A stretch of 64,000 nucleotides of DNA from a virus. The translations under genes and the position numbers were made by a program. The notes beneath the pieces were generated by a model that saw only the letters and a list, made by a program, of their open reading frames with translations, had not been told where the DNA came from and did no database searches. Location of the stretch: the IMG/VR virus record IMGVR_UViG_3300035053_000291; one strand, written 5' to 3'. Numbering within the stretch: the first letter of the stretch is position 1; every line of letters starts with the position of its first letter. Shown piece after piece: positions 1 through 59,733 of the stretch.

Positions 1-344
1 TATCTGGTCACTATCTCCCGGACATTTTCCTGATATTCATTGTTCTCCATCAGTTCTGATACGATGGTGCTGGTCATGGAATAATCCTTGATGTTTTCTG
101 CACTGGCGAACACCAATCCTTTGTATCCGATCAAATTCGTTAACTCGTCGATGAGGTCTTTTGCATCTTCCTGATATGCTGGTTCAGTGTTCTTGACCAC
201 ATGATCAAAATCTGCAGCGCCATGCTGACCGGTATGCTGATAGGATGAACAATTTCCGTTCAGGTCTGCTTTGATGTAGGGAAAAAGAGCGATGTGCTCT
301 CCCTTCGGCCATTTTCTTAATACGACAGTTGTCTGCTCTGCCAT
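1..344 (-). CDS. Hypothetical phage-type protein (runs off window edge), MAEQTTVVLRKWPKGEHIALFP...SYQHTGQHGAA
   Basis: Open frame read manually from ATG 344, GGAGG SD upstream; absent from ORF track. Confidence 0.7.
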   Translation of the reverse strand, partial: MAEQTTVVLRKWPKGEHIALFPYIKADLNGNCSSYQHTGQHGAADFDHVVKNTEPAYQEDAKDLIDELTNLIGYKGLVFASAENIKDYSMTSTIVSELMENNEYQENVREIVTR

Positions 345-346
345 GG

Positions 347-604
347 TTATTCCTCCCACGTTCCTTCATTGATTATGTTTTGTTCTTCCCATGCTTCTTG
401 AGCTTCCTCAAAACTTCGATATCCATTGTCCAGTTCTTCTCCGGTCTTTGCATCTACTATCATGAATATTGACTCTGGAGAAACGACCACTTCTGTGTCT
501 TCTCCTTGATATCCATTTAATTCAACAATTAAAACGTCTTTCATACTGACACTTACAGATAGTTTGCTCTCATTGTGCCAATCTTCCATTATATCTCCTC
601 CCAT
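347..604 (-). CDS. Hypothetical acidic protein
   Basis: ORF track, operon-like packing; true start probably ATG at 589. Confidence 0.65.
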   Translation of the reverse strand: MGGDIMEDWHNESKLSVSVSMKDVLIVELNGYQGEDTEVVVSPESIFMIVDAKTGEELDNGYRSFEEAQEAWEEQNIINEGTWEE

Positions 605-731
605 AAGTATTTCCTAAAAAGGGATCATGTGACGAAGTTAATGTGGCCTGAATGAATAGAAAAAATAATATCAATGCAATGCATAACATTATTGTTTTCA
701 AAAATTTCTTATCCATAATGGCTCTCCTCCA

Positions 732-980
732 TTATTCTTCTAATTCTCTTTTCTTTCGTTCTCTCAATGTCTTGGCAACCTGCATGAGTTTTCCAGCAAG
801 CATCTCTGCTTCTTCCGGAGTGAGTTCGCAATACTGGTTGCCTTCCTCATCCAATCTCAAACAGACGGCATGTAAGTCTGGGTCTGCTTCCACAATGTGG
901 TTAAGATACTTGGTCCAGGAAATAGTTGGTGTAATGCCTATTTCCCGGTCTACCTGTTTCAATCCTCGTATTGCCGTCAT
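732..980 (-). CDS. Hypothetical protein
   Basis: ORF directly downstream of dUTPase. Confidence 0.7.
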   Translation of the reverse strand: MTAIRGLKQVDREIGITPTISWTKYLNHIVEADPDLHAVCLRLDEEGNQYCELTPEEAEMLAGKLMQVAKTLRERKKRELEE

Positions 981-983
981 TTT

Positions 984-1433
984 TCATTCTCCGGTGCTTC
1001 CAATGCCGCCTTTCCTGACAGTTGTCGGTTTGTCATCAAAAGTATAGTATGGTATGATGAATCCTTGAGCAATGCGGTCTCCTCTTTTGATGGAGACTTT
1101 CTTGTGTCCTGTGTTCTTCAGGCAGATAGCGATGTTTCCGCCTGTTTTCTGGTTTGTCTCATCGCTGTAGTCCGGATCTATTTTGCCCTCAGTGTTCGCC
1201 AATTTGATATCTTTTTTTATTCCCATTGATGACCGTGGCACTATTTCCAAATGCAATCCTAACGGCATCACCACTTTGACATCTGTCCAGAAGATGTGTT
1301 TGGCACCTTGGTACAATGTCTTGTCTTCCATCGAGTGGAAATCATATCCTGCTGAACCTGCTGTTTGTCTTTGAGGGAGAATGACCTCTCCCTCGTGCTT
1401 TCTGAATTTTTGGTCCACTACTTCAAATGCCAT
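984..1433 (-). CDS. dut: dUTPase (trimeric)
   Basis: Motifs AGYDF, PRSSMG, GKIDPDY, RIAQG, RKGGIGSTG; start set at ATG 1433 because the upstream gene occupies 1439-1594. Confidence 0.95.
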   Translation of the reverse strand: MAFEVVDQKFRKHEGEVILPQRQTAGSAGYDFHSMEDKTLYQGAKHIFWTDVKVVMPLGLHLEIVPRSSMGIKKDIKLANTEGKIDPDYSDETNQKTGGNIAICLKNTGHKKVSIKRGDRIAQGFIIPYYTFDDKPTTVRKGGIGSTGE

Positions 1434-3790: not shown

Positions 3791-5455
3791 TCACATCATT
3801 TCTTTTGCTTTCTGCAGACGGGAATCCTCACTGATGGATTGTGCTTCATCGAAGATATCCAATAACCGGTTATCATTGGACAGTTGTCGGGCTTGATTCT
3901 TGATGTGTTCCTGTAATTCAGCATTTGCTTCCTGGTCCACATTGAACGTGGCCAGTATCTCTTCGAAATCCTGCATGGTGATCGGTCTTACTCTCCCGTC
4001 TTTCTGAATGGAATCCTTCATCACATGCTTCGCGGTTCTGATGACCAATTGTTCGATGTCTGAACCACTCCACATGTATGTATGGCTGTTGTTGGCCAAT
4101 GTCTCAAAGGAGATATCGCCAGCCAGCGGCAGATTTCGTTTTATCCTGGTGTGAATCTTGAATATCTCCTTTCGTGCCTCTTCATTCGGATAGGGAACCG
4201 GGGCGATACTGTCGATTCTCCCTGTTCTTCTCATGGCTTCATCGATGTCCTCGATACGATTGGTGCAACCCACGAAGAACCATCTCCGATTCTCATCACC
4301 AAGTTTCTCCAAGAACATGCTGAAGATCTCCCGATGCACCTGTGCGCCACTGTCTCCACCGCCAGATGACCGTTTAGCCATCCGGTCCAGTTCATCTACA
4401 AACACGATTGCAGGAGCTAGACTGTCCGCTATCTTGAACGCTCGCTTCAATGACCGTTCACTTTCACCGACATATTTGCTCATGAAGTTCTCCTGCTTGA
4501 TGGTGAGCACGCTCATGTTCATCTCCCGGCTCATCGCCTTGGTCATGATGGTCTTTCCCGTTCCCGGAGGGCCGAACAGGATGACTCCTCTTGGCTGATC
4601 CATCCCATATTGTTTAGCGATGTCAGGATGCCTCAATGGAAGGATGATGTCATTTCTCAACCGGGTCTTCAATGCATCATAACCGCCAATGGCCTCAAAC
4701 CCGAACTTCGGGCGCTGGATGATGTCCAACACCGGGTCTTTCCCGATCAATTGTTCTTTGGTGTGAGATACTGCATCCAAATCGATCTTGTTGTATCTGA
4801 CCAATGATTCAATGAGTGTAGCATCGATCTGGTCCAGATTCATCCCGGACAGCAACCGCACTGCTGCTTTCTTCTGCTCTTCATCAAGCCGGTTTGCGGT
4901 TCCCATCACCTGTTCATCATCCTCGATCATCCGCTGCCGTTCATCCGGTAATGATTTGGGGACATCGACCACTTTCATCTTACTCCAGACTGATTGCGGA
5001 AGAATGCTGATGTCCTCTGTGAACACCAAAACCGTGGAATCAGCGAAACGCAAGGTATCACTGCTCGACCAGGAAAGCAATGCACTGTTGATGCTGTCAT
5101 TGGTCTTTAACAGGTTCTGGATGACCAAAACCGTGTCTCCTTTTTCTAATTCCTGACTGACTTTTGGAAGGAGTTTCTTGATGCCTCCACCATATTTCTT
5201 GGCATCAGCGATCGGTTCAACCTTCCATCCGTCTCCTGCTGCTTTCTTTACTTCCCTGAGTCCTTCCCAACTATCCAACAACAGCCAACGTTCTCTGGCA
5301 GCACTGCCATTCTTTTTGATGATGATCGGTTTTGGATGATTGGCCTTCATCACTGAAAGGATCTCACTTATCCGTTTGCAGTCATCTGTCTGCACGATGA
5401 TCCCATTGGAATATAGGGATCGCCGCTGAATGCTTACTTCTTCAATCCAATTCAT
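3791..5455 (-). CDS. AAA+ ATPase, Cdc48/Ycf46-like (degenerate N-terminal plus active C-terminal AAA)
   Basis: GPPGTGKT, pore loop KYVGESE, VFVDELD, SRH TNRIEDIDEAMRRTGRID. Confidence 0.9.
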   Translation of the reverse strand: MNWIEEVSIQRRSLYSNGIIVQTDDCKRISEILSVMKANHPKPIIIKKNGSAARERWLLLDSWEGLREVKKAAGDGWKVEPIADAKKYGGGIKKLLPKVSQELEKGDTVLVIQNLLKTNDSINSALLSWSSSDTLRFADSTVLVFTEDISILPQSVWSKMKVVDVPKSLPDERQRMIEDDEQVMGTANRLDEEQKKAAVRLLSGMNLDQIDATLIESLVRYNKIDLDAVSHTKEQLIGKDPVLDIIQRPKFGFEAIGGYDALKTRLRNDIILPLRHPDIAKQYGMDQPRGVILFGPPGTGKTIMTKAMSREMNMSVLTIKQENFMSKYVGESERSLKRAFKIADSLAPAIVFVDELDRMAKRSSGGGDSGAQVHREIFSMFLEKLGDENRRWFFVGCTNRIEDIDEAMRRTGRIDSIAPVPYPNEEARKEIFKIHTRIKRNLPLAGDISFETLANNSHTYMWSGSDIEQLVIRTAKHVMKDSIQKDGRVRPITMQDFEEILATFNVDQEANAELQEHIKNQARQLSNDNRLLDIFDEAQSISEDSRLQKAKEMM

Positions 5456-6194: not shown

Positions 6195-6239
6195 TTTATT
6201 CCTCCTTAATGCTTCAAAAAATGCTACTGGACAGTTGTC

Positions 6240-6737: not shown

Positions 6738-7235
6738 TTATTTCACCTCCGGCAATCCAAATTCTTCGTAGAAGAACTCTAATGCTTCCCGTGCTTTGGC
6801 AAGATTTTCATCTTCCATGATGTTCTCCATGATGCCATCTACATGTTCATAGATATTCTGTCTAAAAGCATCAGTGGCATGGACGATGCCCTTTCTATCG
6901 ACGCAGAAGGGTATCGGTGCCTGGTCCTTCACATGTTGTTCTTGGACAGTTGTCCATATCTTTTTCCTGATGTCTTCTATCTGTTTGTAGAGAAAATCGA
7001 TGGCATCCTGGTATTCCTGGATGTCTTTATCATAGTCACGGTCCTGTTTTATGGACGCAGTGTATTCTTCACCGCATTCCGTGCACTTTCCATCTGCACC
7101 GATCTCTCCTTCTCCACAGACGGAACAGATAGGTGTCATACAGTTGGAACACACAGACCCTGTTGGTGATAATTCCGTGTCTTTCAATGATGCTCTGAGA
7201 TTTGCCCCGCAAACCGGGCATTCGACATATCCCAT
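6738..7235 (-). CDS. Zn-ribbon protein (four CxxC pairs)
   Basis: CPVC, CSNC, CSVC, CTEC. Confidence 0.75.
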   Translation of the reverse strand: MGYVECPVCGANLRASLKDTELSPTGSVCSNCMTPICSVCGEGEIGADGKCTECGEEYTASIKQDRDYDKDIQEYQDAIDFLYKQIEDIRKKIWTTVQEQHVKDQAPIPFCVDRKGIVHATDAFRQNIYEHVDGIMENIMEDENLAKAREALEFFYEEFGLPEVK

Positions 7236-7797: not shown

Positions 7798-7799
7798 GT

Positions 7800-8126: not shown

Positions 8127-8128
8127 GT

Positions 8129-8431
8129 TTATCCCTCATATATCTCCCATTCTTTCTGACAGTTGTCGCAATGATAATATGGCGGGTCTTCCGTGTGGGT
8201 CTTTTCTCCACAAGCCGGGCAACACACCGTAGCTGGTGCCATCGCCGTTTCTGGCAATGGATCATCCAGTATCTTCCTGTATTCCATTTCTGTCAGGTTT
8301 CCTTCATTGAGATTGATCTTTGCTTTGATTATGCGGGATAATCGTTCAACCTCGTCTCCATTCAATGGTTCTTCAGTGCCGTCCTTGTATTCATCTATCA
8401 ACGGCTGAATGTGGTCCATCCAATCATTCAT
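8129..8431 (-). CDS. Zn-ribbon protein
   Basis: CPACG...CDNC at C-terminus. Confidence 0.7.
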   Translation of the reverse strand: MNDWMDHIQPLIDEYKDGTEEPLNGDEVERLSRIIKAKINLNEGNLTEMEYRKILDDPLPETAMAPATVCCPACGEKTHTEDPPYYHCDNCQKEWEIYEG

Positions 8432-8447
8432 TGTTTATTCCTCCTAA

Positions 8448-8658: not shown

Positions 8659-9036
8659 TCATCTCCTTCTTATTTCATTCTTCCAGTTCTTGCCGATTAT
8701 GAATTCAACAGAATCCCACTCTCTCACTGGATAGTTGTCATCAATCATCCTGAAGAATTCATCTTCTTCTTTTGTTGCTTCACTGAGACTATCGGTTGCT
8801 ATATGGTAAAGGAAAAAGGTGCGCTCGTAGGTGACTGGGGACATGTATTCTTCCATGATGAGGACATCTGTCCCCATATGGATTCCATGATATGTGAAGT
8901 AATATTCATCATCCACTTCTGAATCTTCTTTAATTCCTTCTTCCTCTCCTGCGATCAGTTCCGTGTCGAATCCTTCTCTGAATTCTTCCAATTGTTCGAT
9001 CTGTTTCTGTATCTTCTTTCTGAGTTCAGGTTCCAT
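8659..9036 (-). CDS. Hypothetical acidic protein
   Basis: ORF track, SD. Confidence 0.7.
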   Translation of the reverse strand: MEPELRKKIQKQIEQLEEFREGFDTELIAGEEEGIKEDSEVDDEYYFTYHGIHMGTDVLIMEEYMSPVTYERTFFLYHIATDSLSEATKEEDEFFRMIDDNYPVREWDSVEFIIGKNWKNEIRRR

Positions 9037-10847: not shown

Positions 10848-11321
10848 TTACTCCTCCTTCTTCCCATACATATTCAGGTAAAACAGGTGTTCTTGGATTT
10901 CTGATCTGTTATTGGTGTCCCAGTGGTCATCACAACAATCCCAGCGTATCTCGTCCTTCATGTCGTGTTCCTTGACAACTGTCTTGGGGAAGTGGACTGT
11001 GTATTCGATACTTCCAAAAATGGAATCATCTTCTTTTATTTCAGCCACTGGCATTTCTTTTTCTATTTTACCCATGAGATCTTCCTTTCGTCTCTTAATC
11101 TCTTCAAACGGAAGGCCACGGGTAAAAGTGTAATATTCTAGACCGTCTATTGTCTTGGTCGTCCCGTGGCTTTCAATGATTTCCAGGTCTTCCTTCAAAA
11201 ACTCCTTACGGTCATATTCTTTTAGATAGACTTGTCTTAGCCAAGGTCCTGACCCTCCTACGATCAAGTCAGAATCGTATTCTTCCTCGACCTCAAGAAA
11301 AATCTTACTTTTGTTCTCCAT
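10848..11321 (-). CDS. Hypothetical protein
   Basis: ORF track, GGAGG SD. Confidence 0.7.
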   Translation of the reverse strand: MENKSKIFLEVEEEYDSDLIVGGSGPWLRQVYLKEYDRKEFLKEDLEIIESHGTTKTIDGLEYYTFTRGLPFEEIKRRKEDLMGKIEKEMPVAEIKEDDSIFGSIEYTVHFPKTVVKEHDMKDEIRWDCCDDHWDTNNRSEIQEHLFYLNMYGKKEE

Positions 11322-13275: not shown

Positions 13276-14022
13276 TCATCTTTCCTCCTTTAATCCCACT
13301 TGTTTCTTCAGTTCCTTCACCCCTCCCCGGATGATCTTTTGGTTGAACTTGTATGTCTTTTTTCTTCCTTCATCCTTCCTTTCGAATATGCCGGATTCAG
13401 CTCCCATCCCAAGCATCTTTCTGACCTGCCCAAACTTCAATGGGATATCCTGAAATTTTCCTTTGTTGATGCCCGTTGCCGTTTGCTCGTTTCCTGCAAA
13501 ATAATCGATCTTATTGGCATCGTTCAACCCGCCACGGAACCGAAGATACCAATAGTAGACTATTGTTGCACCTTCGACTTTCACCCGTCTTTTCCCGGCA
13601 AGCCCATAAAAGTGTTCCTCTTTTATCTCTTCAAGGAACTCTTTCTGTCTTCGGGTCAACGATTTTATTTTCTGGTTTCGTTCATTGATGATGGTTGGTA
13701 TCTCATCTGCATCGAACATCTGCCGATACACATATCCTCGCTTCTTCTGTCCTGTTTTCAGGATAATGCCATAATTCGATAGATAATTCAGTGTTGATCG
13801 TGCCTCATAAGGATCCATATCCAAAGACAACTGTCGGAAAATGAACTCTTCTCTGGAAAAGTTGACGATATGGACCAAAAGAGGAATCATCGTCTCCTTA
13901 TTGGCGGTCATTGGAATGCGGAAATGTTCGTATTTTTTGTTGTATTTCATCTGTTCGATCCATCTGTTCTTCTGTTCTTCATTGTCGAATATAGGGGCGG
14001 TCGTTTGTCTGCTCAAAGCCAT
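13276..14022 (-). CDS. Hypothetical protein with probable wHTH
   Basis: YEARSTLNYLSNYGIILKTGQKKRGYVY helix-wing pattern. Confidence 0.65.
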   Translation of the reverse strand: MALSRQTTAPIFDNEEQKNRWIEQMKYNKKYEHFRIPMTANKETMIPLLVHIVNFSREEFIFRQLSLDMDPYEARSTLNYLSNYGIILKTGQKKRGYVYRQMFDADEIPTIINERNQKIKSLTRRQKEFLEEIKEEHFYGLAGKRRVKVEGATIVYYWYLRFRGGLNDANKIDYFAGNEQTATGINKGKFQDIPLKFGQVRKMLGMGAESGIFERKDEGRKKTYKFNQKIIRGGVKELKKQVGLKEER

Positions 14023-18301: not shown

Positions 18302-18357
18302 TGTTTATTCCTCCAAAAAATAAGTGGAAAATGGGACAGGTGTCCCATCCTTCCCTC

Positions 18358-18651
18358 TTAGTATGCTCGGGCTCCTCCATTGGCAATGGCATCTTCGATG
18401 AGTTGCTGGCGTCGGTAGATCTTTTCAGTCACATTTGCTGCCTTTTTCTGTTCGACCTCTTGCTGCCACATCCTGACAACTGTCTCTGGGACGGTCTTTT
18501 CGATCATTTCCAAGGCTTCTTCTTTCCTCATCAGGTCGTCAAAAGACATTGTTTCTGTCTTTGCTGCTGCCTGATAGATCTCTTTTGCCTCTTCGTATTT
18601 GATATGTTCGTCGTTTCCTGCGTTTCCTTTATATATCTCTTTTCTATTCAT
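18358..18651 (-). CDS. Hypothetical protein
   Basis: ORF track, AGGAG SD. Confidence 0.7.
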   Translation of the reverse strand: MNRKEIYKGNAGNDEHIKYEEAKEIYQAAAKTETMSFDDLMRKEEALEMIEKTVPETVVRMWQQEVEQKKAANVTEKIYRRQQLIEDAIANGGARAY

Positions 18652-20283: not shown

Positions 20284-20810
20284 AGTTGTTTTTTTTCTTT
20301 TTTTTTCACAGGTGTTTTATTGCGTTCTTTTCCTGTGAGTTTTTTCTTTGTGTGGGGATTTTTTTTGTTTATGAAAATGTTTTTTGATTTAATTTTTTCA
20401 TGTTTTTTGCTTTTTTTTTCTCCTTATGTATCTCCACCCTATCCGTCCCATTTTTCACGAAAAAAAAAAATATTTTGAAAAAGAAAAAAAATTGGAACAA
20501 AAAAATAAATTGGAAAAAAAATTCGCAACAAAAAAAGAAAAAAAAGAAAAAATAAAAAAAGCAACAAAAGGAAAACAGGTCATCTAGGCATCTTGAGGCA
20601 GGAGGAGGAGGGGAGGGGCGGAGTGTGGGTTGCGGGGCAAAAATTTATTTTTGGCAGGGGTTCAGGGTGCCATAATGGGTCTCAAAATGTCTCTCAAAAA
20701 AGGTCTCATTCTCGGTCCCGAAATCTCTCTCAAATCGGGAACCTGTTTCTCCCTTAGAATGGACAGCTGTCCCCTTAGAAGAAAAAAAATTTAAAAAAAA
20801 TTTTTTTAGA
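20284..20810. other. Poly(T)/poly(A) tract region with G-rich run and short TCTCAAA repeats; possible origin or control region
   Basis: T-tracts 20284-20420 mirror A-tracts 20460-20580; G-runs 20601-20637; GGACAGCTGTCC flanked by CCCTTAGAA direct repeats. Confidence 0.4.
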
Positions 20811-28825: not shown

Positions 28826-28885
28826 GGTTTGGTCGCCTTTTTTAAACTGTCCGGTGGACAGTTGTCAACATGATGTTTTTTTTAA

Positions 28886-38393: not shown

Positions 38394-38576
38394 CTACAAT
38401 GTAGATTGTTTGTTCTTTTTCTTTTTCGTGATGATCACCGTATCTTTGTTTACGACAACTGTCACGTTGTCCTTGTCCTCAAAAGGGAATGCTGAATCTC
38501 TCCATACCTTTGCCTGAATGGATAACACTCCCTTACTGCCATAGATGTGGAAGGTGCCTTTTCCTTCACTGGTCAC
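38394..38576 (-). CDS. AbrB/SpoVT-like DNA-binding protein
   Basis: GSKGVLSIQAKVW...FEDKDNVTVVVNKDTVIITK. Confidence 0.6.
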   Translation of the reverse strand: MTSEGKGTFHIYGSKGVLSIQAKVWRDSAFPFEDKDNVTVVVNKDTVIITKKKKNKQSTL

Positions 38577-41114: not shown

Positions 41115-41345
41115 TCACGCATACATCGGATTGAATTCTTTTGAAGGCTTGTTGAACTTCTCTGGGTCGGTGACCACGTCCAGAAACTGGGATTCGATGA
41201 TCTCCAACTGTTTTTTATTCAATCCTTTCTCGTTCATCCTGATGTTGCCGTGTTTGTCTTTTGCGACAACTGTCCCGTTTTCCCGGTCCACGATGACCGT
41301 CAAATATGATCCATCGGTCTGTTCCCACTTGTATTCTTTACTCAT
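41115..41345 (-). CDS. Hypothetical protein, C-terminus MYA
   Basis: Start reassigned to MSKEYK after GGAGG. Confidence 0.7.
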   Translation of the reverse strand: MSKEYKWEQTDGSYLTVIVDRENGTVVAKDKHGNIRMNEKGLNKKQLEIIESQFLDVVTDPEKFNKPSKEFNPMYA

Positions 41346-42069: not shown

Positions 42070-42300
42070 AATACTAATAGCACGACAACTGTCCGTGCGA
42101 ATAATCTTTTCCAGCTGATATTTTTTCTAATGATCTCTTTGATCATTCAAGAAACCTAGCCTATACAACAAAACGAATGTTCGTTTTCTCATTCTGTCAC
42201 CTCTTTTTTTCTTCAAAGGAATCGGTAGGGAGCAGCAGACAAACGACGACAGGGAAAAGCCATTACTGCCCCCTTGTTTTTTGTAAAATCCCTTCTACCA

Positions 42301-43126: not shown

Positions 43127-43549
43127 CTATCGTACAGCAACTGGCTTACTTTGTCTTTTTTTTCTTTGATTTCTTTGACGTGTTGTGAACCCATCCGTCT
43201 TTCCTCCTTTCACCACGAACAATGGTGTTGGCACCTTGTGCTGCTCAACATCTAATTCCACCAATTCCCCTTTCTTGTATGGACAGCTGTCCAGTGCAAC
43301 ACGGTAAAATACTCCTTCTTCTCGTGCTTTCTTCCGATGAGTGAAGTTTGCATAAATAAAACGGCGCAGGCTCCCAAACGGGACACCTGGCTTTACGATG
43401 GTCACATGCCACTTTCCCGGTATGAATCCAAACCAGGGTTCTACATACCACTGTAATCGTTTCGGCGGTATCTTCTGGATGATGCGGCCACGAATGGTTA
43501 CACTCATAGCATTTACCCATACATCAATTCGTTTTGCTGTGCTTCCCAA
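43127..43549 (-). CDS. Hypothetical protein
   Basis: ORF track. Confidence 0.6.
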   Translation of the reverse strand: MGSTAKRIDVWVNAMSVTIRGRIIQKIPPKRLQWYVEPWFGFIPGKWHVTIVKPGVPFGSLRRFIYANFTHRKKAREEGVFYRVALDSCPYKKGELVELDVEQHKVPTPLFVVKGGKTDGFTTRQRNQRKKRQSKPVAVR

Positions 43550-43788: not shown

Positions 43789-43953
43789 AAAAACACGCCT
43801 CCGTTCTGGTGCTTCTTTCTACTCTGCCGTTCTTTGCGCTTTTTCTTGCGCTTCTTTTCTTCCTTTTATCATATGTCTTAAACCCTATTTAATAATTTCG
43901 GCTAATTGAGACAATTATATCATTTGGACAGTTGTCTGCTTGATTATTATTGA

Positions 43954-44226
43954 CTATTGATACATTATTTGTTGTGATTCAGACAGTTGTCGCAAATTCT
44001 GTATCTCTTCTTCAATCTTTTCTCTGACTATTTCCCTCATCTCTTTGATGTCTTCATCTGGAATGTAAACTCTGATGATTTCCTGAATGGCTATTGATGA
44101 TTTCTGCAACGCCATAGCTACTTCTTCCGGGTTCTTTGGGAATTTTTCCTTTATCGTCTTCATAATGATCTCTTCGACTTCCAAGACGAGTTCCTCGTCA
44201 ATATCTATTTCAGGATCTTCTTCCAT
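43954..44226 (-). CDS. Hypothetical protein, C-terminus MYQ
   Basis: ORF track, GGAGG SD. Confidence 0.7.
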   Translation of the reverse strand: MEEDPEIDIDEELVLEVEEIIMKTIKEKFPKNPEEVAMALQKSSIAIQEIIRVYIPDEDIKEMREIVREKIEEEIQNLRQLSESQQIMYQ

Positions 44227-44801
44227 GAGATTCCTCCACTTGTTTCCTTATTCATTCGATATGCATATGCTAATACCAAAAACCCGACCGCAAAGAATAT
44301 AACGGTTTCAGCCAAGGCGACACCTGTCACAAACATGAACAAAAAGACCGAACTCAATCCAATTGCCAGCACTAACCCAGACAGGTTTGCATACTGCCAA
44401 TCATCATAACGCAAGGACAACGTGATCAATGCAATAGCAACAGCCAGCAGCATGAAACAGACAAAAAAGATATGAGGAAACCCATGAGGAAAAACCCCAA
44501 TACCTATCATGCCAATGCCCGCTAAGATGAACCCTTTTGCGGCAATGACTGCTTTCTTCTTCAGATATGATTCCAATCCGATGCCGAATCCTGCCATGAA
44601 GATACCAGTCAATACGACACCTATCCGGAAGACATAGGTATGATCCCCAAAAATTCCAAGATCCGATAAGGCCATGTCGGTCCAGACGAACCAAGGATTC
44701 AGCAGGATGGCTAAACCGACTGAAATGAAAAACGTGGCAAAGGCCAGTGCACCACAGGTTGCTCCGGCTGCTATGCGACTGTTGTCGGGTTTCTTAATCA
44801 T
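44205..44801 (-). CDS. DUF998-like multi-pass membrane protein
   Basis: NPWFVWTDMALSDLG..., GIGMIGIGVFP..HIFF. Confidence 0.75.
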   Translation of the reverse strand: MIKKPDNSRIAAGATCGALAFATFFISVGLAILLNPWFVWTDMALSDLGIFGDHTYVFRIGVVLTGIFMAGFGIGLESYLKKKAVIAAKGFILAGIGMIGIGVFPHGFPHIFFVCFMLLAVAIALITLSLRYDDWQYANLSGLVLAIGLSSVFLFMFVTGVALAETVIFFAVGFLVLAYAYRMNKETSGGISWKKILK

Positions 44802-46104: not shown

Positions 46105-46575
46105 TCAAAATGATTTGATCTTCACTTCTTTTTTCTTATATATCGGTGGCAGTTCTTCCATCTTATCCGCAAATTCCTGGACTGTCTCTTCTGGAACATC
46201 ATGTGTTTGCCTTTCTACTGCAATCTCGACAGGTGTCACCATGTGTACGAAAAAAACCTCGTATTGTTTTTCCATTGCTTCCTCAATGTAAAAAGACATG
46301 GCACGCATGGACAGATTGGTATTGTCCACAACGATAAGTTGGTCCCCGTAGGCAAGTGCCTCTTCAAACTGGTCCCGGCAGTATTGATGTGCTTCACCAA
46401 TCAAATCGATGTCGAACTCATAGTTTCCTTCCCCATCAACAAAATAATGGTCTGCTGAACAAACCGTGGCATGACTATAGTTCTGGCGGACAAATGTTGA
46501 CTTCCCCGATCCAGGAATACCTCGCATGATGATCACTGCTCCGTTCAATTTTTTCAAGAGAGACACCTCAATCAT
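46105..46575 (-). CDS. AAA_33/N4BP2-like polynucleotide kinase
   Basis: MRGIPGSGKST, SADHYF, IVVDNTN, HDVPEE. Confidence 0.85.
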   Translation of the reverse strand: MIEVSLLKKLNGAVIIMRGIPGSGKSTFVRQNYSHATVCSADHYFVDGEGNYEFDIDLIGEAHQYCRDQFEEALAYGDQLIVVDNTNLSMRAMSFYIEEAMEKQYEVFFVHMVTPVEIAVERQTHDVPEETVQEFADKMEELPPIYKKKEVKIKSF

Positions 46576-47194: not shown

Positions 47195-47494
47195 CTACTC
47201 GACAGTTGTCTGCTGTATTTCTTCTCTTGTTTTCCTGTCAAACTGTTTGAAGTAGTCATCTATTTCCTGGTCTACTTTCTCTTTGACAGTTGTCGGGATT
47301 TCAGTATCCAAGATGTTCTTCAAATATTCCTCATGGTATCTATTTATGATGTAATATGCGATGGTGGCCCGTGCTAATTCTCCCGGGTATCTTTTATCGA
47401 TCATCGTGGTGATATCGTCAACCATCTGCTTCACATCTGCCTTGTTCTTCTCTAATTCATATCTTAATTTTTGTTCCATTTCTATTTCCTCCAT
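47195..47494 (-). CDS. Hypothetical helical protein
   Basis: ORF track, GGAGG SD. Confidence 0.7.
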   Translation of the reverse strand: MEEIEMEQKLRYELEKNKADVKQMVDDITTMIDKRYPGELARATIAYYIINRYHEEYLKNILDTEIPTTVKEKVDQEIDDYFKQFDRKTREEIQQTTVE

Positions 47495-47511: not shown

Positions 47512-48597
47512 CTATTGATACATAATTCTATCATATTCATCAATCTTCTTTGTTTTTCCTTCTTTCTTCTTGACAGTTGTCGGAATCTCTTCCAACATGG
47601 TCTTGACCTTTGATATATTATCTTCTATGATGTTGATATGTTTCAACAACCCTTTCTGTTTCTTTTCCAATTGTGCTACTCGATCTTCTATGTTTTCGTC
47701 AACTGTCGGCTGTTTTCTGAATTCGTTGATTTCTTTTCTGACCTGTTTGAATTCATTTTCCACATAACCCATCAAATCCCATGATTCCAATGCATCCACT
47801 GCATCATAGAGATCATTATCCAGTAGTGTCTGTTCAAAGTCTGCATTTCCTGAAGACATGTCCAGCATCTTTCCATCGATGTTTAATGAGAATCCTGCCG
47901 CCACTCGCTTTGCTTTTGGCGATAATGCTTTTTTTGTGACGTGTGGTTTCTGGATGCAGTGTAGGTCTTTCCATGATATCCTGATGTGTGCTTTTTTCTG
48001 GAACCATTTGAGCGCTTCGTAGACAATAGAGAATATGGCTACTCTTGCCGAGTCTAATGATTCTTTTGCAAATGGCATTTCTGGAATTATAATAATCAGA
48101 TTATCTTTACCGTGTTTTTCGAACGTCCATGCATCGAATTCATCGAAGATTTTGACCTTGTATTTGCGGACTGCACAATTTCCTCTATCATATTTGTTAC
48201 ATTTCTCGAAGAAACTACTGTACTCTCTCTCAATCTTGGTTTGATACCTCGCCTTCTGTAGAACGATTTCACGTCTAGGTCGTGGTTTGGTTGACAACTT
48301 TTTTTGGTCGTCTTCATCGTCTTTTTTCAGTTTGTAGACATCGTCAAACTCAATATATGTTGCTTCGTAGAATTTGATTCTTTCTTCAGGATTGATACAT
48401 TTGATTAAGTTATTTTTTTGGAATTCTTTAATTGTTTTTGAAACATATTGTCTACTAATACCGACGTATTTGGCAACTTTTGACTGTGTTAGCTGGTATC
48501 CTTTTCCATCCTTATGTTGCCCGGTTAACAGTTCATAGATCTCTTTTTTCTTATTGTTAGCCGATTTCACACCATCCCTCGTTTCTGCTCTGCCCAT
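47512..48597 (-). CDS. N-terminal wHTH protein, possible replication or regulatory protein; C-terminus MYQ
   Basis: LTQSKVAKYVGISRQYVSKTIKEFQKNNLI; probable GTG start near 48571. Confidence 0.7.
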   Translation of the reverse strand: MGRAETRDGVKSANNKKKEIYELLTGQHKDGKGYQLTQSKVAKYVGISRQYVSKTIKEFQKNNLIKCINPEERIKFYEATYIEFDDVYKLKKDDEDDQKKLSTKPRPRREIVLQKARYQTKIEREYSSFFEKCNKYDRGNCAVRKYKVKIFDEFDAWTFEKHGKDNLIIIIPEMPFAKESLDSARVAIFSIVYEALKWFQKKAHIRISWKDLHCIQKPHVTKKALSPKAKRVAAGFSLNIDGKMLDMSSGNADFEQTLLDNDLYDAVDALESWDLMGYVENEFKQVRKEINEFRKQPTVDENIEDRVAQLEKKQKGLLKHINIIEDNISKVKTMLEEIPTTVKKKEGKTKKIDEYDRIMYQ

Positions 48598-50224: not shown

Positions 50225-50610
50225 CCGCTATTTCCTACACGGAAGTGCGGGAGCAATTGAGAGCAAATACTCTCACCAAATAGTTGTGCAAATGCAAAAT
50301 GCACATCTTTCCTACTTCTGCTCTGCCCGCACCATCAAGGTGCAAACCCCTATAATGGAATAAGATGTATATTAATGTGTTTTTATTTTTACAGGATAGC
50401 GACAGGTGTCAGCTGAAAAAAAGAGAGGAAATAATGGCGCCAACGACGATGCCACACATAGTACAAACAGTGTAGAACATCAGTTTGACTGCCAACATTC
50501 TTCGTTCCCATGGATTGAGATTCACGTCAGCACCACCGTCAAAATTATCAGGACAATTCCATAGGCAGAAACACCAGAGGACACAAGCAACGCTTCCTTC
50601 TGTTCTTTGT

Positions 50611-51807: not shown

Positions 51808-51972
51808 ACATTTCTAAAATGGTCTGTTCTTCTGGCTGTTCTTTGTCTCCCGGTCGTTTTCCTTTGTAGAATTCTTTGATGAGATCCTCTGATGTGTCCC
51901 ATTCTAGTTCCCGTTTTTCCATGTCGTTCCAGACAGGTGTCTTGCCGGGAAGGTTAAGAAATACTTTCGATT

Positions 51973-53954: not shown

Positions 53955-56642
53955 TCAGTTTTCAAGCAATTCCTGTTGGAATGCTTTACTGAATGTTTCT
54001 TCCGTCTCTTTGTTGTAGAATGGAAGACCAATAATCCTTATTTTTTTGTCCGTGTAGACAGGAATTGCTTTTTCTTTGATTTCATTTAGAAAGTGTTGCT
54101 TCCATGCTTCTTTTCCCTCCTCGAATGTTTCATCATCTCCTTTCCATTGGTCGCCCTTTGGTTCGATGAAGAGCTGATACAACACCTGTTTCTTTTTGTT
54201 TTTGTCTGATAGAGTGAGGATGAAATCTGGCTGGAATGTTCTTCCATCTTTGAAACTATATATGTTTACTTTCTGTTCATTTCTAATCAGGTAGATATTG
54301 TCATAATGTTCTCTCAATCGTTGTTGCATTCTATCAAAATATCTGAGGAAGTGTTTTTCTTCTGATGTCCCATGATTCTCTTCAAATATATACCAGTCTT
54401 TCTTCTCCAAATCCATTCTAAGCTCCCTATTTGTCTCTCTGCTCATGGGAATGCCGTGCCCCGTCTGTTTGATCAATTTCACCTTGTAAACCAGGTCGTT
54501 GAAGATGTCTTTAATGCTAACTGCATAGAATTCTTCAGTTCCCTTGTATACTGTTGAGTTTGCCAAGGTCTTTTCCTGGATTTTAGAGAGAACGTGGTAA
54601 GCGACCTGTAGTTTTTCCTGTTGGTTAATCTGTTGCATCTGCTGGTAGGTTCCCGCAATAGTAATCTTCATATCTCCAAGATAATCTGATGAGGTGATGA
54701 ATTCCTGTTTTGACTTGATGTGCGGATAGTATCTTTTCAACCATTCAAATTTGAAGAAGCGCATCTTCTGCATAGCATAACGGATGACGTGTTCATCTAC
54801 ATCTTTTAGTTTGATTTCTTTTGTCTGTGTGCCGTTTTCCTGTTTGAATTCTCCGTTTTCCATGATTTTTATATCTTCCTGTTTCCCTGTTGGTAATTGC
54901 ACTGTGATGTTTACCTCTTTAATTCCCTCTCGCAATGAATGGATCTCTGTTCTAGGATGTGGGATTCTTTTATTGACCATGATCTTTCCTCGTTTGTACA
55001 TGGCAGTCCGTTTGAATGATGGTTTCATCTTTTCAATTATTTTTGTTGGTTTTTCCTCATCCAAAATACCTGTCCTGATCAATTCAGATCGAAGTGCTTT
55101 GATGTATGTTGGAATTCTTTTGCAGTGAAAATGCAAAGTTTCCAAGCAGCGTAACTCATTGGCTTGATCACCATCATATTTTCGTTTATTCATTGGTTGT
55201 TCTTCTGATATCCGATACGGGTAATTCCTGGCACCACGTCCAATGAGCTGTGCTTCCTTGACCGTGGTCTTTCCTGGTTTATCTTCCGATTCTGCCTTAG
55301 TATCATACAATCGGACGATGTCATATAGATTCAAAACATCCCATCCCTCGTTCAGTTTGTCCACAACAAATATTGCTCTGATCTCATTAGATGGTTCCTC
55401 CAGGTTGTTCACCAACACCTGATTTTCTTCTGTTTCTTCTTTGGAATTGACTGCGATACAACGCTCTGGTGAAAAATCAACCTGCAATTCCTTGATCAAT
55501 GAATCATATGATATCCCTTTTCTTTTGAAATAATTGAATGCATCAGCAACGATGTGTCTTGCATGTTGTTCAATGTTCTGCAACTCTTCTTTGGACAATT
55601 GTCGCAATTTTTCGTGGAATTCTTCTTCTATCTCTTCTGATACCACGGCATTTTTATGACGGTTCTTCGGCGGATTCACATAATTTGATTTGAATAGAAC
55701 CACTGGTTTTACATACAAATCATGATCGATGGCTACCTTCTTCCGATATTGACTGACAATAATGGCCTGAAGTATACGTTCCCATGCATCTGTATCGGAA
55801 TCATGGACCATGACATCTTTTGAATATTTGTCTTTTCTGAATTGGCGAAGATCATACTGATAGATTAGTTTGTCATGATATTTTTCTCTTACATTCTTGT
55901 TGTTCAATTTCGCTGTTGCAGTGAATTCCATCAATATGTTTTCCTTATTAGCAAAAAGAATGTTTGCAATGGTGTCCTCCCAAGTCTTTTCCTCTCTTTT
56001 TTCTGCTATTGTGGTAGCATTGGTATGATGTGCCTCATCAGATAACATGACGATCTTCAAATCTTCAAAATCAGCATAGGTGATCATATTCTCCTTTGGC
56101 GTGTTCATCCGTGAGTGTAGTCCTTGGATAGTGGTAAATAAAATGTTGATGTCGTTTTCATTTGCCTCCTCAAAAGATTGCACTTCATTGACTTCGACGA
56201 CTTGGCCATCAATAAGGATCTCATCAGCAAACAGATATTTCTTCTTGGTCTTATCCGTGAAATTGATACGGGTTTTATCGATGACTGTGGTGCTATTCAC
56301 GAAAAACAGGAAGTTTCGATAGCCTTGTTTGTACAGATAGATCATCAATTCTGCCATCAAGGGAGTTTTTCCTGAACCTGTGGCCATTTCATACAACACA
56401 TGAACGGGTTTTTTGTTGGCCATCTCATACTCTTCGATGAACAATCTGGTGATGTTGAATGCTTCTGTTTGATAATATCGTTCTTCGAACCTGCGAGACA
56501 TGTTCTCCATTACATAGGTTGGCAATAGCATCTCCCGAATGGTCTTTGCACCAAATTCATTGATGACCCAGTCCTGCAGGAAATCCTCACTGGTCGTTCC
56601 ACCGCCAAAAGTCGTCTGGCGTAATGCAGTCACCTTACTCAC
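53955..56642 (-). CDS. res: Type III restriction enzyme Res subunit
   Basis: MATGSGKT, SDEAHH, LNEGWDV, QLIGRGAR, PDF...FIEPKG. Confidence 0.93.
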   Translation of the reverse strand: MSKVTALRQTTFGGGTTSEDFLQDWVINEFGAKTIREMLLPTYVMENMSRRFEERYYQTEAFNITRLFIEEYEMANKKPVHVLYEMATGSGKTPLMAELMIYLYKQGYRNFLFFVNSTTVIDKTRINFTDKTKKKYLFADEILIDGQVVEVNEVQSFEEANENDINILFTTIQGLHSRMNTPKENMITYADFEDLKIVMLSDEAHHTNATTIAEKREEKTWEDTIANILFANKENILMEFTATAKLNNKNVREKYHDKLIYQYDLRQFRKDKYSKDVMVHDSDTDAWERILQAIIVSQYRKKVAIDHDLYVKPVVLFKSNYVNPPKNRHKNAVVSEEIEEEFHEKLRQLSKEELQNIEQHARHIVADAFNYFKRKGISYDSLIKELQVDFSPERCIAVNSKEETEENQVLVNNLEEPSNEIRAIFVVDKLNEGWDVLNLYDIVRLYDTKAESEDKPGKTTVKEAQLIGRGARNYPYRISEEQPMNKRKYDGDQANELRCLETLHFHCKRIPTYIKALRSELIRTGILDEEKPTKIIEKMKPSFKRTAMYKRGKIMVNKRIPHPRTEIHSLREGIKEVNITVQLPTGKQEDIKIMENGEFKQENGTQTKEIKLKDVDEHVIRYAMQKMRFFKFEWLKRYYPHIKSKQEFITSSDYLGDMKITIAGTYQQMQQINQQEKLQVAYHVLSKIQEKTLANSTVYKGTEEFYAVSIKDIFNDLVYKVKLIKQTGHGIPMSRETNRELRMDLEKKDWYIFEENHGTSEEKHFLRYFDRMQQRLREHYDNIYLIRNEQKVNIYSFKDGRTFQPDFILTLSDKNKKKQVLYQLFIEPKGDQWKGDDETFEEGKEAWKQHFLNEIKEKAIPVYTDKKIRIIGLPFYNKETEETFSKAFQQELLEN

Positions 56643-58599
56643 CCCAGAATAGTCTATTCAGTTTCTTTTCCTCATCACTTATGTTGTATGTTTCATCATC
56701 TATTTCTGATGCATTAACATACAATTGATTCATATCAAGTGTCTCAAGAAGGAAGGTCTTTTGTTCTTCAATGGACAACTGTCGGAAATCATCAATGTGT
56801 TCGTTGACCTTTTTGATGTCGACTTTGTAATTGAGGAAAGCGTTTTCCTGAAGATTGTTCCACAAGTCTAACAGTTCTTCACTGGTTTCTGCGGATTCTA
56901 TCTTTTCCACCCATTTCTGATTCCATTTTGCGAGTTCACAGTAAACCAAGTCTCCTCCACCTTGCCAGTTTACTTTTTTTGATATCCCTGTTGTGTAACC
57001 ATTAACAACGTTCTTCAGGCGGGCGACGCTGTCGTTTTTACCATAGTCTAATTGTTCAATACCAATATATTGTCTCCCCAGCTTATGTGCTACCGCTGCA
57101 GTTGTTCCAGAACCTAAAAAGAAATCTAAGACAATATCCTCTTTCTTTGTATTCATCTCGATTATTCGACGCAAGAGTTTTTCTGGTTTTTTACCATTCT
57201 TTAATTTTACTCCTCCTTCAGGAGCGATTCCCTGCCATGATATATCCGTCCACAGTGAACCCAATTCTGTTCCAATTATTTTGTTGCCATCTATGTCTTT
57301 TTTAAGGTTCTTTGAATAGAATCTAACCATCTCTCCTTTATAGCAAATGATGTCTTCTTTCTCTTCTCTTTCGTATACGGCCCATGTATCTTCTTTAGAC
57401 TTGTTCATTGCTTGTTTTAACCCTGCGCCAGCCCCTTTTGGAGAAATAGTTCGAAATATTCTGTTCAAGTTCTTAAAAACAAAATCATAAAGTAGTTTTT
57501 CATTTTTCTTATTCTCTTCTCCTTTTTCTGCAACAAATTCATCTAATACTCTCCCAATTTCCCATTTTCTAAAATCTTTTTCTTCAGGATTCAAAATTAT
57601 TTTATTATATGCTTTGTCAACATCTGACTTCACCCAAAGAGGTTTGTACTCTCTCATATCATAATTTTTTGCATATATCAATCCATATTCACAATTTTTT
57701 GGCATAAATGGATTTTGGTATTCATTTGCCGCTCCGACATTTGCTTTTATTTCAACATACTGAACAAAATTATCTTTTCCTTTTGGAGATTTTTTGAATA
57801 CCTCATCCGCTAATATTTTTAGATAAGATAATTCATTATCATCACAATGAATAAATATTGTTCCTTTTTCATCCAATAACTCTTTTGCTATCTCCAATCT
57901 ATTTTTCATAAATGTTAGCCATGTTGAATGATTAAAACGATCGTTGTAAAATGCCTCCGCATCTATATTGAATGGAACATCAATGTAGATGAGTTTTACT
58001 CTTCCAAGATATTTTTTCTTTAGAGTGTGTAATGCTAACAGGTTGTTTCCTTTTATGATGAGATTATCTTCATCGTTCAAATCCTTGACCTTATGCTCTC
58101 CATGCTGATCTATCCGTTTGAAATTGGTCAGTACCTTTGGTTCCAATAATGTCAGCACTTCATCTGGCGCTAATGTTTTATTGTAGAATATCTCATCCCG
58201 TTTCTGATCTTCCTTGGTCATTCCCCCAGCCAATACGCAATCTTTGTACGGCCAGACCAGAGAAACTTCTTTGTTCTTCCGTAAGAGTTCTCCACCAATA
58301 GAGAGTCCTATCTTCTGACCAAATGCAGTATAGGAATCCTGCAGGAATTCCTTATTCTTCATGAAATTGATGAATTTGTCTTTATCAAAGACAACTGTCT
58401 GCCCATCCTTTGTTGGTATGTCACTAAAAAAGTGTTTTTTCAGTGCTTCCTCTTCTAATAATAATTTCAATAAGGTCTGATCGTTCTTCAAGGCCAACTC
58501 CACGGCCTTTTCTTTCAATATTCTTTTCTCAGAATCTGACAGATCCTGATGTGAACGTAAAACTGATACTAAGTCTTCCTCAAAATGTTTTTGATTCAT
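56635..58599 (-). CDS. mod: Type III DNA methyltransferase Mod subunit
   Basis: IKGNNL, IYIDVPFN (motif IV variant), GKKPEKLL, LDFFLGSGTT; adjacent to Res. Confidence 0.93.
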   Translation of the reverse strand: MNQKHFEEDLVSVLRSHQDLSDSEKRILKEKAVELALKNDQTLLKLLLEEEALKKHFFSDIPTKDGQTVVFDKDKFINFMKNKEFLQDSYTAFGQKIGLSIGGELLRKNKEVSLVWPYKDCVLAGGMTKEDQKRDEIFYNKTLAPDEVLTLLEPKVLTNFKRIDQHGEHKVKDLNDEDNLIIKGNNLLALHTLKKKYLGRVKLIYIDVPFNIDAEAFYNDRFNHSTWLTFMKNRLEIAKELLDEKGTIFIHCDDNELSYLKILADEVFKKSPKGKDNFVQYVEIKANVGAANEYQNPFMPKNCEYGLIYAKNYDMREYKPLWVKSDVDKAYNKIILNPEEKDFRKWEIGRVLDEFVAEKGEENKKNEKLLYDFVFKNLNRIFRTISPKGAGAGLKQAMNKSKEDTWAVYEREEKEDIICYKGEMVRFYSKNLKKDIDGNKIIGTELGSLWTDISWQGIAPEGGVKLKNGKKPEKLLRRIIEMNTKKEDIVLDFFLGSGTTAAVAHKLGRQYIGIEQLDYGKNDSVARLKNVVNGYTTGISKKVNWQGGGDLVYCELAKWNQKWVEKIESAETSEELLDLWNNLQENAFLNYKVDIKKVNEHIDDFRQLSIEEQKTFLLETLDMNQLYVNASEIDDETYNISDEEKKLNRLFWGE

Positions 58600-58615
58600 G
58601 CTATTTCCTCCTTTC

Positions 58616-59200
58616 TTAATGCAACTCTACTTCAATCATTCGTTCCTTTTTTACCTTGCACATGCTACACACACGGCAATTACCCGGGCACTTGTATTCT
58701 GCGTCCTCTGAATATGAGTCAACAGTCATAAACATGTTGTCCAACATGAATCCAGAACCAGTGACCACCATGTTCTTTGGTCTGTTGCTGAAGTCCAGGT
58801 CATGTCTTGCGGTGTAGCCGTAGACGATCACATCCGTGTTGTCAACTAACATGGTTGAGATGTCAACCATTTTGTCAACATCCTCTTGTGCTTCGAAGTC
58901 ACCTGACTCGCTGAACCGGAGATATTTGATATCTGCAGGTACCAGCCGCATCTGTGCCATTAAGTCCTGTGCGATGTTCTCTGCATCAGTTGCTTTCCAG
59001 TATGCCTCCTGTTTCCTCCGATAGGGCAACACCTGTGGATATAAGCGTTCCGCTTTCAGTGCATAACATCGTTTCGGGTTTTCCAACGGACACAATCCCC
59101 GTTTCCTGGACGGGCAATCCATTGCTGCATTCATGTTCAGGATCAGTGTGTCCTCACCGATCTTTCTGTTCCCATTCGACACTTTAAGTGTCGGATGCAT
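58616..59200 (-). CDS. Phage Gp88-like protein
   Basis: GNRKIG...CPS...C..CYA...RFSESGDF...YGYT. Confidence 0.75.
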   Translation of the reverse strand: MHPTLKVSNGNRKIGEDTLILNMNAAMDCPSRKRGLCPLENPKRCYALKAERLYPQVLPYRRKQEAYWKATDAENIAQDLMAQMRLVPADIKYLRFSESGDFEAQEDVDKMVDISTMLVDNTDVIVYGYTARHDLDFSNRPKNMVVTGSGFMLDNMFMTVDSYSEDAEYKCPGNCRVCSMCKVKKERMIEVELH

Positions 59201-59241
59201 CTCTGCACCTGTCCGTTGTTCTGCTCTGCCGTTCTAAGATT

Positions 59242-59733
59242 TCAGGATATTCTGCTTACATTAATCCGTTCTTCTTCAACTCCCTTATTGATTAATACTT
59301 TTTTAACTCTTTGCCTGATCTCTTTTTTCATGGTGTTTCTTGTCACATTAACCACCTCTGGTTCTCCTTCTATTCCATGTCGTTTTCTCATGTGTCTTTT
59401 GCCATGATAAATGGCTTTGCTTCTTCGCATGGGCTTGTTCCCATGTCCCTTACATCCTTCCACCGGGCAGACCCAGATGGCTTTTCTAAACGAAGTCGAT
59501 ACTTGCAGTACCTTGTCCTTCTTGACGACGATGGGTTTGATGCCATCAGTGGATAAGATGCCATGCTGTGCCCGCAAGTGGTCTTTCCCGTTTTCCATTG
59601 CTCTCCCTTTGGTCGTTGCTTTTCCTCCTCTGGAGAGACAGTTGTCCATCGGGCATTGCCAAATCCATTCTTTTTTGTTCTTTTTGTCACTCATTTCTTT
59701 ATTCCTCCTCAAAAAACTACGTTTACGCAACAA
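59242..59733 (-). CDS. Tandem C2H2-type Zn-finger protein
   Basis: WQCPMDNC...HLRAQH and WVCPVEGC...HMRKRH. Confidence 0.75.
   Translation of the reverse strand: MLRKRSFLRRNKEMSDKKNKKEWIWQCPMDNCLSRGGKATTKGRAMENGKDHLRAQHGILSTDGIKPIVVKKDKVLQVSTSFRKAIWVCPVEGCKGHGNKPMRRSKAIYHGKRHMRKRHGIEGEPEVVNVTRNTMKKEIRQRVKKVLINKGVEEERINVSRIS

Follow-up and report, generated by a model that had tools for sequence, protein, structure and literature searches.

The element and its iterated word

A 64-kb stretch of DNA from the IMG/VR record IMGVR_UViG_3300035053_000291 (the window; this term denotes the whole stretch that was analyzed) was studied with respect to a near-palindromic ten-base word, GACAG-N-TGTC, that recurs in it. 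The genes of the window lie nearly all on the minus strand and are packed wall to wall. Those that were recognized include genes for replication and nucleotide metabolism (PCNA, an AAA ATPase and a dUTPase), an RNase H-like protein, a Type III Mod/Res pair, an integrase-like gene with a weak match below the Pfam cut-off, a scaffold protein (weak match) and one initiator-like tRNA. DNA-binding proteins are represented by a MarR-type winged-helix protein, a winged-helix protein of 361 amino acids (aa), a resolvase-type helix-turn-helix protein and a 44-aa ribbon-helix-helix (RHH) protein; there is also a Zn-ribbon protein, which an earlier note on this DNA had labeled a histone. These gene features are indicative of a virus, or a virus-like element, of archaea. 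The same DNA was found in many oil-field metagenome runs, and the element is probably a virus of anaerobic, hydrocarbon-associated archaea.

The earlier note had described an iterated palindrome, GACARYTGTC. This motif proved to be real: 28 exact matches were counted, compared with 0.20 expected from dinucleotide-preserving shuffles (shuffle maximum, 2), and the 27 positions listed earlier were correct, the copy at 38454 having been omitted. The accompanying list of GG/CC-centered copies was likewise right in the positions that it gave and lacked the copy at 46228. Further centers lie beyond both lists (TC at 1278, 8863 and 27097; CT at 31267). The form GACANNTGTC matched the window 38 times versus 1.03 expected (Table 1), i.e., approximately once per 1.7 kb, mostly within genes. 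As had been suggested, k-mer enrichment within the window was evaluated against a Markov model, and in an unbiased scan GACAGTTGTC with its reverse complement was the most enriched 10-mer (24 sites versus 0.11 expected, order-2 Markov). One-mismatch variants were also numerous, as had been stated, with 34 found and 3.5 expected (approximately 10-fold). The sub-words GACAG, CAGTTG and TGTC were not enriched once the full sites had been masked. By contrast, the supposed absence of the motif from AT-rich inserts was not borne out, since bins with a GC content below 0.40 held 10 sites in 22 kb and the remainder held 28 in 42 kb (P = 0.39).

The 38 sites share the outer bases and differ in the center, which is GT/AC in 24, GG/CC in 6, GA/TC in 3, GC in 3, AT in 1 and CT/AG in 1. 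Thus, the asymmetric GT/AC center predominates, and the perfect palindrome GACAGCTGTC is found at only 3 of the 38 sites. When the sites of the window and of its motif-bearing relatives were pooled, 59 of 63 carried G as the fifth or C as the sixth base, versus 44% expected (P = 4e-17). Positions outside the ten bases carried no information, and flank identity between copies (8.2 versus 7.7 of 30) was negligible. Copy-paste spread of the word was therefore rejected, because the flanks were not meaningfully more alike than chance, so that the word does not spread as part of a longer unit; sharp ten-base boundaries without shared flanks also argue against a mobile mini-element or gene-conversion tracts. 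From its anatomy, the word behaves as a dimer-type protein site would, with two short half-sites under purifying selection. Avoidance of AGCT was considered as a cause of the asymmetric center: AGCT is depleted in the window (0.45) but not in the MLSed relative, and the related locus L020 depletes AGCT yet keeps GC centers in 2 of 6 sites, which makes the idea weak.

With respect to genes, 48% of the sites have a gene start at most 150 nt downstream, compared with 24% of random positions (P = 0.009). The spacing of the 38 sites was more even than random (coefficient of variation 0.70, P = 0.013). The densest stretch, 43927-47581, holds five exact copies, two center variants and three one-mismatch copies in 3.7 kb and lies directly downstream of the gene for the 361-aa winged-helix protein and of the integrase-like gene. 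In this stretch, a 37-nt junction consisting of a gene end, a stop codon, a 5-nt spacer and an ATG is duplicated (47020-47056 and 47187-47223, 89% identical) around a small AT-rich open reading frame (ORF); the exact motif is present in one junction copy and GACAGCTGAC in the other. The arrangement resembles what a gene inserted or duplicated at the boundary between genes would leave behind. No significant flip in strand composition was detected at the sites. Along the window, the exact word tends to keep one orientation over several successive sites before it switches (GGGGGG AAAAA G AAAA GGGGG AA G; 7 runs, P = 0.009), though all genes point one way, and this pattern blurs once the center variants are added.

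Table 1. Copies of the word in the window, followed by the genes of DNA-binding proteins (a dot stands where no strand applies; L020, L021 and L205 are related loci described below)
Feature	Position	Strand	Remarks
GACAGTTGTC	324..333	.	codons 4-7 of an ORF; overlaps GGCAGAGCAGA word
GACAGTTGTC	1017..1026	.	37 nt before next gene start; kept in L021, 9/10 in L020
variant GACATCTGTC	1278..1287	.	identical in L020 and L021
motif	3879..3888	.	3' end of AAA ATPase gene; made by K>R, T>S; kept in L020
GACAGTTGTC	6230..6239	.	36 nt before gene start
GACAGTTGTC	6945..6954	.	mid-gene
GACAGTTGTC	8158..8167	.	32 nt before gene start; identical in L020 and L021
variant GACATCTGTC	8863..8872	.	identical in L021
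GACAACTGTC	10974..10983	.	
GACAACTGTC	13826..13835	.	
variant GACAGGTGTC	18335..18344	.	L205 ortholog is GACAATTGTC
GACAACTGTC	18475..18484	.	L205 has GATAACTGTC
perfect palindrome GACAGCTGTC	20762..20771	.	intergenic; L205 has GACAGTTGTC at the matching place
GACAACTGTC	23480..23489	.	38 nt before RHH start codon, 3' of conserved TATA box; candidate autoregulatory operator
GACAACTGTC	25819..25828	.	L205 has GACAGCTGTC
variant GACATCTGTC	27097..27106	.	not kept in L205
variant GACACCTGTC	27885..27894	.	identical in L205
GACAGTTGTC	28857..28866	.	intergenic, 32 nt before gene start
variant GACACTTGTC	31267..31276	.	
perfect palindrome GACAGCTGTC	32996..33005	.	
GACAACTGTC	36979..36988	.	
GACAACTGTC	38454..38463	.	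omitted from the earlier list
GACAACTGTC	41265..41274	.	
GACAACTGTC	42084..42093	.	intergenic, 15 nt before gene start
perfect palindrome GACAGCTGTC	43282..43291	.	
GACAGTTGTC	43927..43936	.	intergenic; opens densest cluster
GACAGTTGTC	43982..43991	.	
variant GACACCTGTC	44319..44328	.	
variant GACAGGTGTC	46228..46237	.	omitted from the earlier list
motif	47201..47210	.	gene end, within 37-nt junction repeat 47187-47223
GACAGTTGTC	47285..47294	.	
motif	47572..47581	.	3' end of 361-aa winged-helix gene; 78 nt before next start
variant GACAGGTGTC	50401..50410	.	
variant GACAGGTGTC	51932..51941	.	
variant GACAATTGTC	55594..55603	.	in Type III Res gene
GACAACTGTC	56774..56783	.	in Type III Mod gene
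GACAACTGTC	58390..58399	.	in Type III Mod gene
GACAGTTGTC	59637..59646	.	
44-aa RHH protein, CopG-like	23527-23661	+	candidate reader
361-aa protein, N-terminal winged helix	47512..48597	-	adjoins densest site cluster; second candidate reader
MarR-like protein	12039-12431		

Maintenance of the word, related elements and the host

Whether coding could account for the enrichment was examined with a codon-aware null model, in which synonymous codons were shuffled within each minus-strand ORF while the protein sequence and codon usage were kept. Disappearance of the enrichment under such a model had been named as refuting the motif, but the enrichment survived: shuffling left approximately 1.7 of the 16 in-ORF sites (200 shuffles; maximum total 13 versus 24 observed). 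All three reading frames are used, giving the peptides DNC/DSC, TTV/TVV and xQLS (e.g., RQLS). The site in the AAA ATPase gene, which is common to the window and its closest relative, was made by the changes K>R, x>Q and T>S beside an otherwise conserved ND; the residues altered by K>R and T>S are themselves conserved elsewhere.

Sites are also conserved at orthologous positions. The bases of sites shared with L020 are identical in 39 of 40 cases, in blocks that are approximately 75% identical (P = 1.4e-4), and 4 of 5 sites are identical in L021, two TC-center variants among them. In L205, at approximately 70% nucleotide identity, the outer GACA..TGTC is kept at orthologous positions and the center changes (window/L205: GG/AT at 18335, AC/GC at 25819 and GC/GT at 20762; 27885 is identical). 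From the use of all frames, the codon-aware null, the orthologous conservation and the amino-acid changes that created one site, it was concluded, in agreement with the earlier note, that the word is kept at the DNA level; it can override the protein.

The AAA ATPase belongs to an uncharacterized, purely metagenomic family and was used to group the relatives. In the motif-bearing loci, GACANNTGTC was enriched with P between 1e-9 and 6e-5. These loci are L020 (AAA 86% identical to that of the window; 6 sites in 8 kb), L021/L205, which are probably one element from the same sample (79%; 9 sites in 20.6 kb), L143 (69%; 4 sites in 19 kb, with a GG center) and L006 (62%; 6 sites in 14.5 kb, at other positions). 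No site was found in L016 (67%), L018 (60%), or L008 and L009 (both 48%), for which the probability of zero sites at the density of the window was below 1e-3. In the AAA tree, the window, L020, L021 and L006 formed a supported clade (92/92), and the placement of L143, L016 and L018 was not resolved. Considering this tree together with the presence and absence of sites, the trait follows the element lineage and was gained or lost no more than once or twice. In L143, the AAA ATPase (7115-9241) is interrupted by an intein (708 aa; faint Pfam Intein_splicing match), and an RFC-like small AAA protein follows PCNA.

Further relatives were sought by other routes. No relative of the AAA ATPase was found in IMG/VR, and genome contigs gave only distant AAA proteins. 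Two copies of the word 45-75 nt apart were searched for in metagenome contigs, where the matches listed were mostly tandem-repeat proteins, and in IMG/VR, where mostly tandem repeats and one unrelated GC-rich phage were obtained. An unrelated viral contig with 58% GC (L170, 702-9136, and L187; IMGVR_UViG_3300030041_000092 and 3300030011_000047) carries nine copies of an 18-bp palindrome, TTGTGACAGGTGTCACAA, in 10 kb, approximately 1 kb apart and mostly at gene starts or in intergenic positions; this looks like a dispersed operator set sharing the GACAGGTGTC core.

To judge the host, the exact word was counted in archaeal genomes. The highest count was 17 per genome among 401 evenly drawn Halobacteriota genomes and 10 among 401 Thermoproteota genomes, and all 96 genomes of one Halobacteriota class with distant family members had at most 6 copies each; at the density of the element, approximately 800 copies would be expected in a host chromosome. 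Because of these low counts in a sample that covers Halobacteriota and Thermoproteota, a host-wide HIP1-like or uptake-like signal is unlikely. Distant homologs of the family-specific N-terminal domain of the AAA ATPase (23-29% identity, in ORFs of family size) were present in 6 of these 96 genomes and in none of the rest of the Halobacteriota sample. One of them, G137:C11:94541-95206 (L211, L214), lies on the same 213-kb contig as mcrA, which hints that the wider family may infect or integrate into methane- or alkane-metabolizing archaea.

Other clues to the host were rejected. Homologs of Type III Res were at most 48% identical, and the few with organism names were almost all bacterial. When 20 kb of the window was searched as DNA against the 96 genomes of the class, the matches were confined to low-complexity sequence in a poly-acidic coding stretch; neither a tRNA nor an att site was among them. 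The region G819:C25:17811-29249 (L220, L221) was considered as a second element since it has six GACANNTGTC copies in 11 kb, but nothing there resembles the window; the copies are all located in three giant ORFs (of 1184, 1466 and 1577 aa; repeated segments are common to two of them) and are probably a repeat-protein effect.

Short palindromes are strongly avoided in the window (observed versus expected: CGCG 6 versus 39, CTAG 31 versus 82, AGCT 57 versus 127), as are longer ones (AAGCTT 1 versus 18, GGATCC 3 versus 22; GAGCTC and CACGTG 0). This avoidance is the footprint of host restriction systems, as expected for exposed DNA, and the set of avoided palindromes could aid host identification. 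Another repeated signal, GGCAGAGCA(G)AAA, has 16 copies between 342 and 59895, all on the coding (minus) strand (e.g., 47508, 53950, 52187 and 2970). Most are located a few bases 5' of a Shine-Dalgarno sequence and start codon; those at 342, 25367 and 42658 lie at or within the coding start, and the copy at 342 overlaps a palindrome copy. No consistent TATA box was found upstream of the copies, and the signal looks like an RNA-level or transcript-start signal.

Most large ORFs of the window had no match in Pfam or PHROGs. Rfam gave no match to the window, a PDB sequence search with the 361-aa protein and a 555-aa protein gave none, and no RNA runs containing the element were listed.

A candidate reader and competing explanations

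The RHH gene is the sole RHH gene in the window and one of its few plus-strand genes (Pfam RHH_5, 29.3 bits; cut-off, 26). It is located in an AT-rich region and is divergent from the minus-strand genes. In its promoter, GACAACTGTC lies between a TATA box at 23437-23444, which is conserved in a relative, and the Shine-Dalgarno sequence and ATG at 23527; counted from the putative start site, the copy would occupy about +10 to +20 of the transcript. The ortholog in L205 (P0246) is 66% identical and has the same beta-strand, KITISLP, and at the matching place of its promoter L205 has GAAAACTGTC, with 9 of 10 bases kept. RHH homologs in IMG/VR contigs had other beta-strands and no motif; a word-index search for homologs returned the protein itself only, and the back-translated pattern KITISLP..DLK was not present in IMG/VR. 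A dimer of an RHH protein such as MetJ or CopG recognizes a short palindrome, 8-10 bp long, within one major groove, and a winged-helix dimer would need a longer site.

It may be proposed, with a probability of roughly 0.4, that the word is a dispersed, stoperator-like operator to which a small, dimeric protein of the element itself binds; the best candidate for this protein is the RHH protein. GACAG-N-TGTC would then represent two inverted GACA half-sites, one of them extended by G, read without flanking context. RHH repressor dimers would bind the scattered sites, every 1.7-2.7 kb, shut off the promoter of the RHH gene itself and nearby promoters, and act as roadblocks to read-through along the one-directional genome. 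The outcome would be silencing of the whole element, as with the stoperators of Cluster A mycobacteriophages. We infer that a protein reads the word, that this protein is the RHH protein and that the effect is silencing.

Several observations weigh against this proposal. About half of the sites are mid-gene, and the 24 exact sites are split 13 to 11 in orientation, with no bias relative to transcription, unlike stoperators. The whole RHH promoter is approximately 80% conserved in L205, so the 9 of 10 bases kept there are not exceptional. Moreover, a given 100-nt upstream region has an approximately 6% chance of holding one of the 38 sites, and about five DNA-binding candidates were inspected. 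The link between the RHH protein and the motif is thus circumstantial, and a reader encoded by the host, or a host-wide word of an unsampled clade, is possible. The fuller claim, that the element silences or marks its whole one-directional genome via approximately 40 mostly intragenic 10-bp near-palindromes read by the 44-aa RHH protein, and that this system evolved by rewriting coding sequence up to and including amino-acid changes, is less likely than not.

A reader other than a repressor, encoded by the element or the host, would use the word as a self-mark that sets the DNA of the element apart from that of the host and protects it from a nuclease or defense system, as a site of loading or condensation in packaging or segregation, or as a replication-linked signal. 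Such a role would agree with sites that are fairly even in spacing and mostly intragenic, with a word that is tied to the element lineage and showed no enrichment in the genomes searched, and with the presence of PCNA, the AAA ATPase, the Zn-ribbon protein and the 361-aa winged-helix protein by the densest cluster. It is nevertheless unlikely, because no ParB, SMC or nuclease-inhibitor gene was recognized in the window scans, the orientation split shows no Chi/KOPS-type polarity (the runs blur when variants are included), strand composition does not flip at the sites, and the half of the sites that lie just upstream of gene starts fits regulation better. The partition or genome-organizing protein suggested earlier keeps a possible role, with no ParB-like gene seen.

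Less likely still is a word of the uptake or HIP1 type shared by the whole genome of an unsampled host clade and mirrored by the element. Only part of archaeal diversity was covered by the genome counts, enrichment at different positions in L006 and L143 is what drive within one host would give, and presence and absence among the relatives could follow host switches. However, the approximately 900 archaeal genomes searched, including the 96 species of the class, held no more than 17 copies each, and the motif-bearing relatives match the AAA clade, which fits vertical inheritance with the element. In addition, no description of the 10-mer was found in the literature in a relevant context. Descriptions of iterated words in viruses of archaea were likewise not found.

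A methylation mark, or methylation-linked repair of the kind that Elhai modeled for HIP1, is very improbable. It is suggested by the one-mismatch copies, in which C>T at the inner C/G (positions 3 and 8) outnumbers that at the outer ones 8 to 1 (P = 0.04), by the depletion of AGCT in the window together with the rarity of the AGCT-containing perfect palindrome, and by the encoded Type III Mod methylase. Yet methyltransferases do not usually recognize a target in which all of 10 bp are specified, and no methyltransferase of matching specificity was found: the sole methylase in Pfam scans of the window proteins, in which several large ORFs had no family match, belongs to the Type III class, which reads short asymmetric words. 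The lack of enrichment of the sub-words alone, the GC centers kept in L020 and the absence of any recognized repair gene in the window also argue against it.

Use of the motif as a recombination site or cassette junction, through which related elements would shuffle genes, is comparably improbable: the duplicated junction, the enrichment of sites near gene ends and the nearby integrase-like gene are in its favor, but there is a single such junction (on which the earlier idea of a recombination hotspot rests), half of the sites fall in the middle of genes, the short site (10 bp, of which 2 bp form the center) is unlike a tyrosine-recombinase core, no serine recombinase was found in the window, and the flanks of copies are not meaningfully more alike than chance. 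Among the three roles proposed earlier, a protein-binding site fits best, and the methylation-driven and recombination readings have little support.

Comparison with known systems

Ribbon-helix-helix operators, such as the MetJ met-box AGACGTCT and those of CopG, Arc and the archaeal aCcr1, resemble the present case in that a palindromic site of 8-10 bp suits one RHH dimer and a copy of the word stands in the promoter of the RHH gene itself. A short palindromic box is the target of RHH proteins of the aCcr1 type, which archaeal viruses and plasmids also encode. The known regulons differ in comprising a few promoters, not approximately 40 mostly intragenic sites. RHH factors of this archaeal type are described as regulators of transcription in Sulfolobales (aCcr1; PMC13199686).

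HIP1 (GCGATCGC) and the alternate cyanobacterial iterated palindromes are similar in being GC-containing, palindrome-like words that occur in coding DNA, in all frames and far above chance, and one-off variants of HIP1 show positional bias, as here (PMC4390886). However, HIP1 is a perfect palindrome, is found chromosome-wide in its host and is linked to orphan methyltransferases reading its inner bases, whereas the word of the window has an asymmetric center, is confined to the element lineage among the sequences searched, and no matching methylase was found for it in the window. With the GC center in only 3 of 38 sites, the likeness to HIP1 drawn in the earlier note is superficial.

The uptake sequences of Neisseriaceae (DNA uptake sequence, DUS) and Pasteurellaceae (uptake signal sequence, USS) are words of 9-12 bp that occur in both orientations, inside genes, approximately once per 1-3 kb, and are maintained at the DNA level. 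In all these respects the present word is alike. They differ in being host-wide and tied to the competence machinery; no host enrichment was found here in the genomes searched, and we know of no uptake-sequence system in archaea.

Only rarely does selection or drive on the DNA itself prevail over protein coding, as with iterated short words such as HIP1, uptake sequences and stoperators, and for most of these words the reader has yet to be identified. The present case is useful since it combines an uncultured lineage of archaeal mobile elements, a sharply bounded site, clear signs of purifying selection and a concrete, testable candidate reader. If the proposal is true, it shows how a large archaeal element may control or label a wall-to-wall, one-strand genome, and the word could serve as a sequence tag for finding relatives in metagenomes. 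It would also be, to our knowledge, the first genome-wide system of stoperator-like roadblocks in Archaea.

The closest comparison is with the stoperators of the Cluster A mycobacteriophages L5 and Bxb1, of which one site lies upstream of the repressor gene and many more are distributed genome-wide (PMC6550527, PMC9283540). Both systems have tens of copies of a short word (13-bp repressor sites in the phages) over a mobile-element genome of approximately 50-65 kb; the word is typical of the element and not of its host (judged here from 898 archaeal genomes); one copy stands upstream of the repressor gene, a candidate one here, with the rest scattered; and silencing by roadblock is genome-wide, as is proposed here. 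Stoperators differ in being asymmetric, in mostly sharing one direction with respect to transcription and in having a monomeric repressor of two domains as their reader, whereas the archaeal word is a 10-bp near-palindrome, equal in its orientations and mostly intragenic, with a 44-aa RHH protein, which has another fold, as the candidate reader. By analogy, the system would work like stoperators without being a member of that group. What is new here is that dispersed element-specific sites and iterated palindromes, known as a kind, are found in an archaeal element together with a candidate reader that can be tested.

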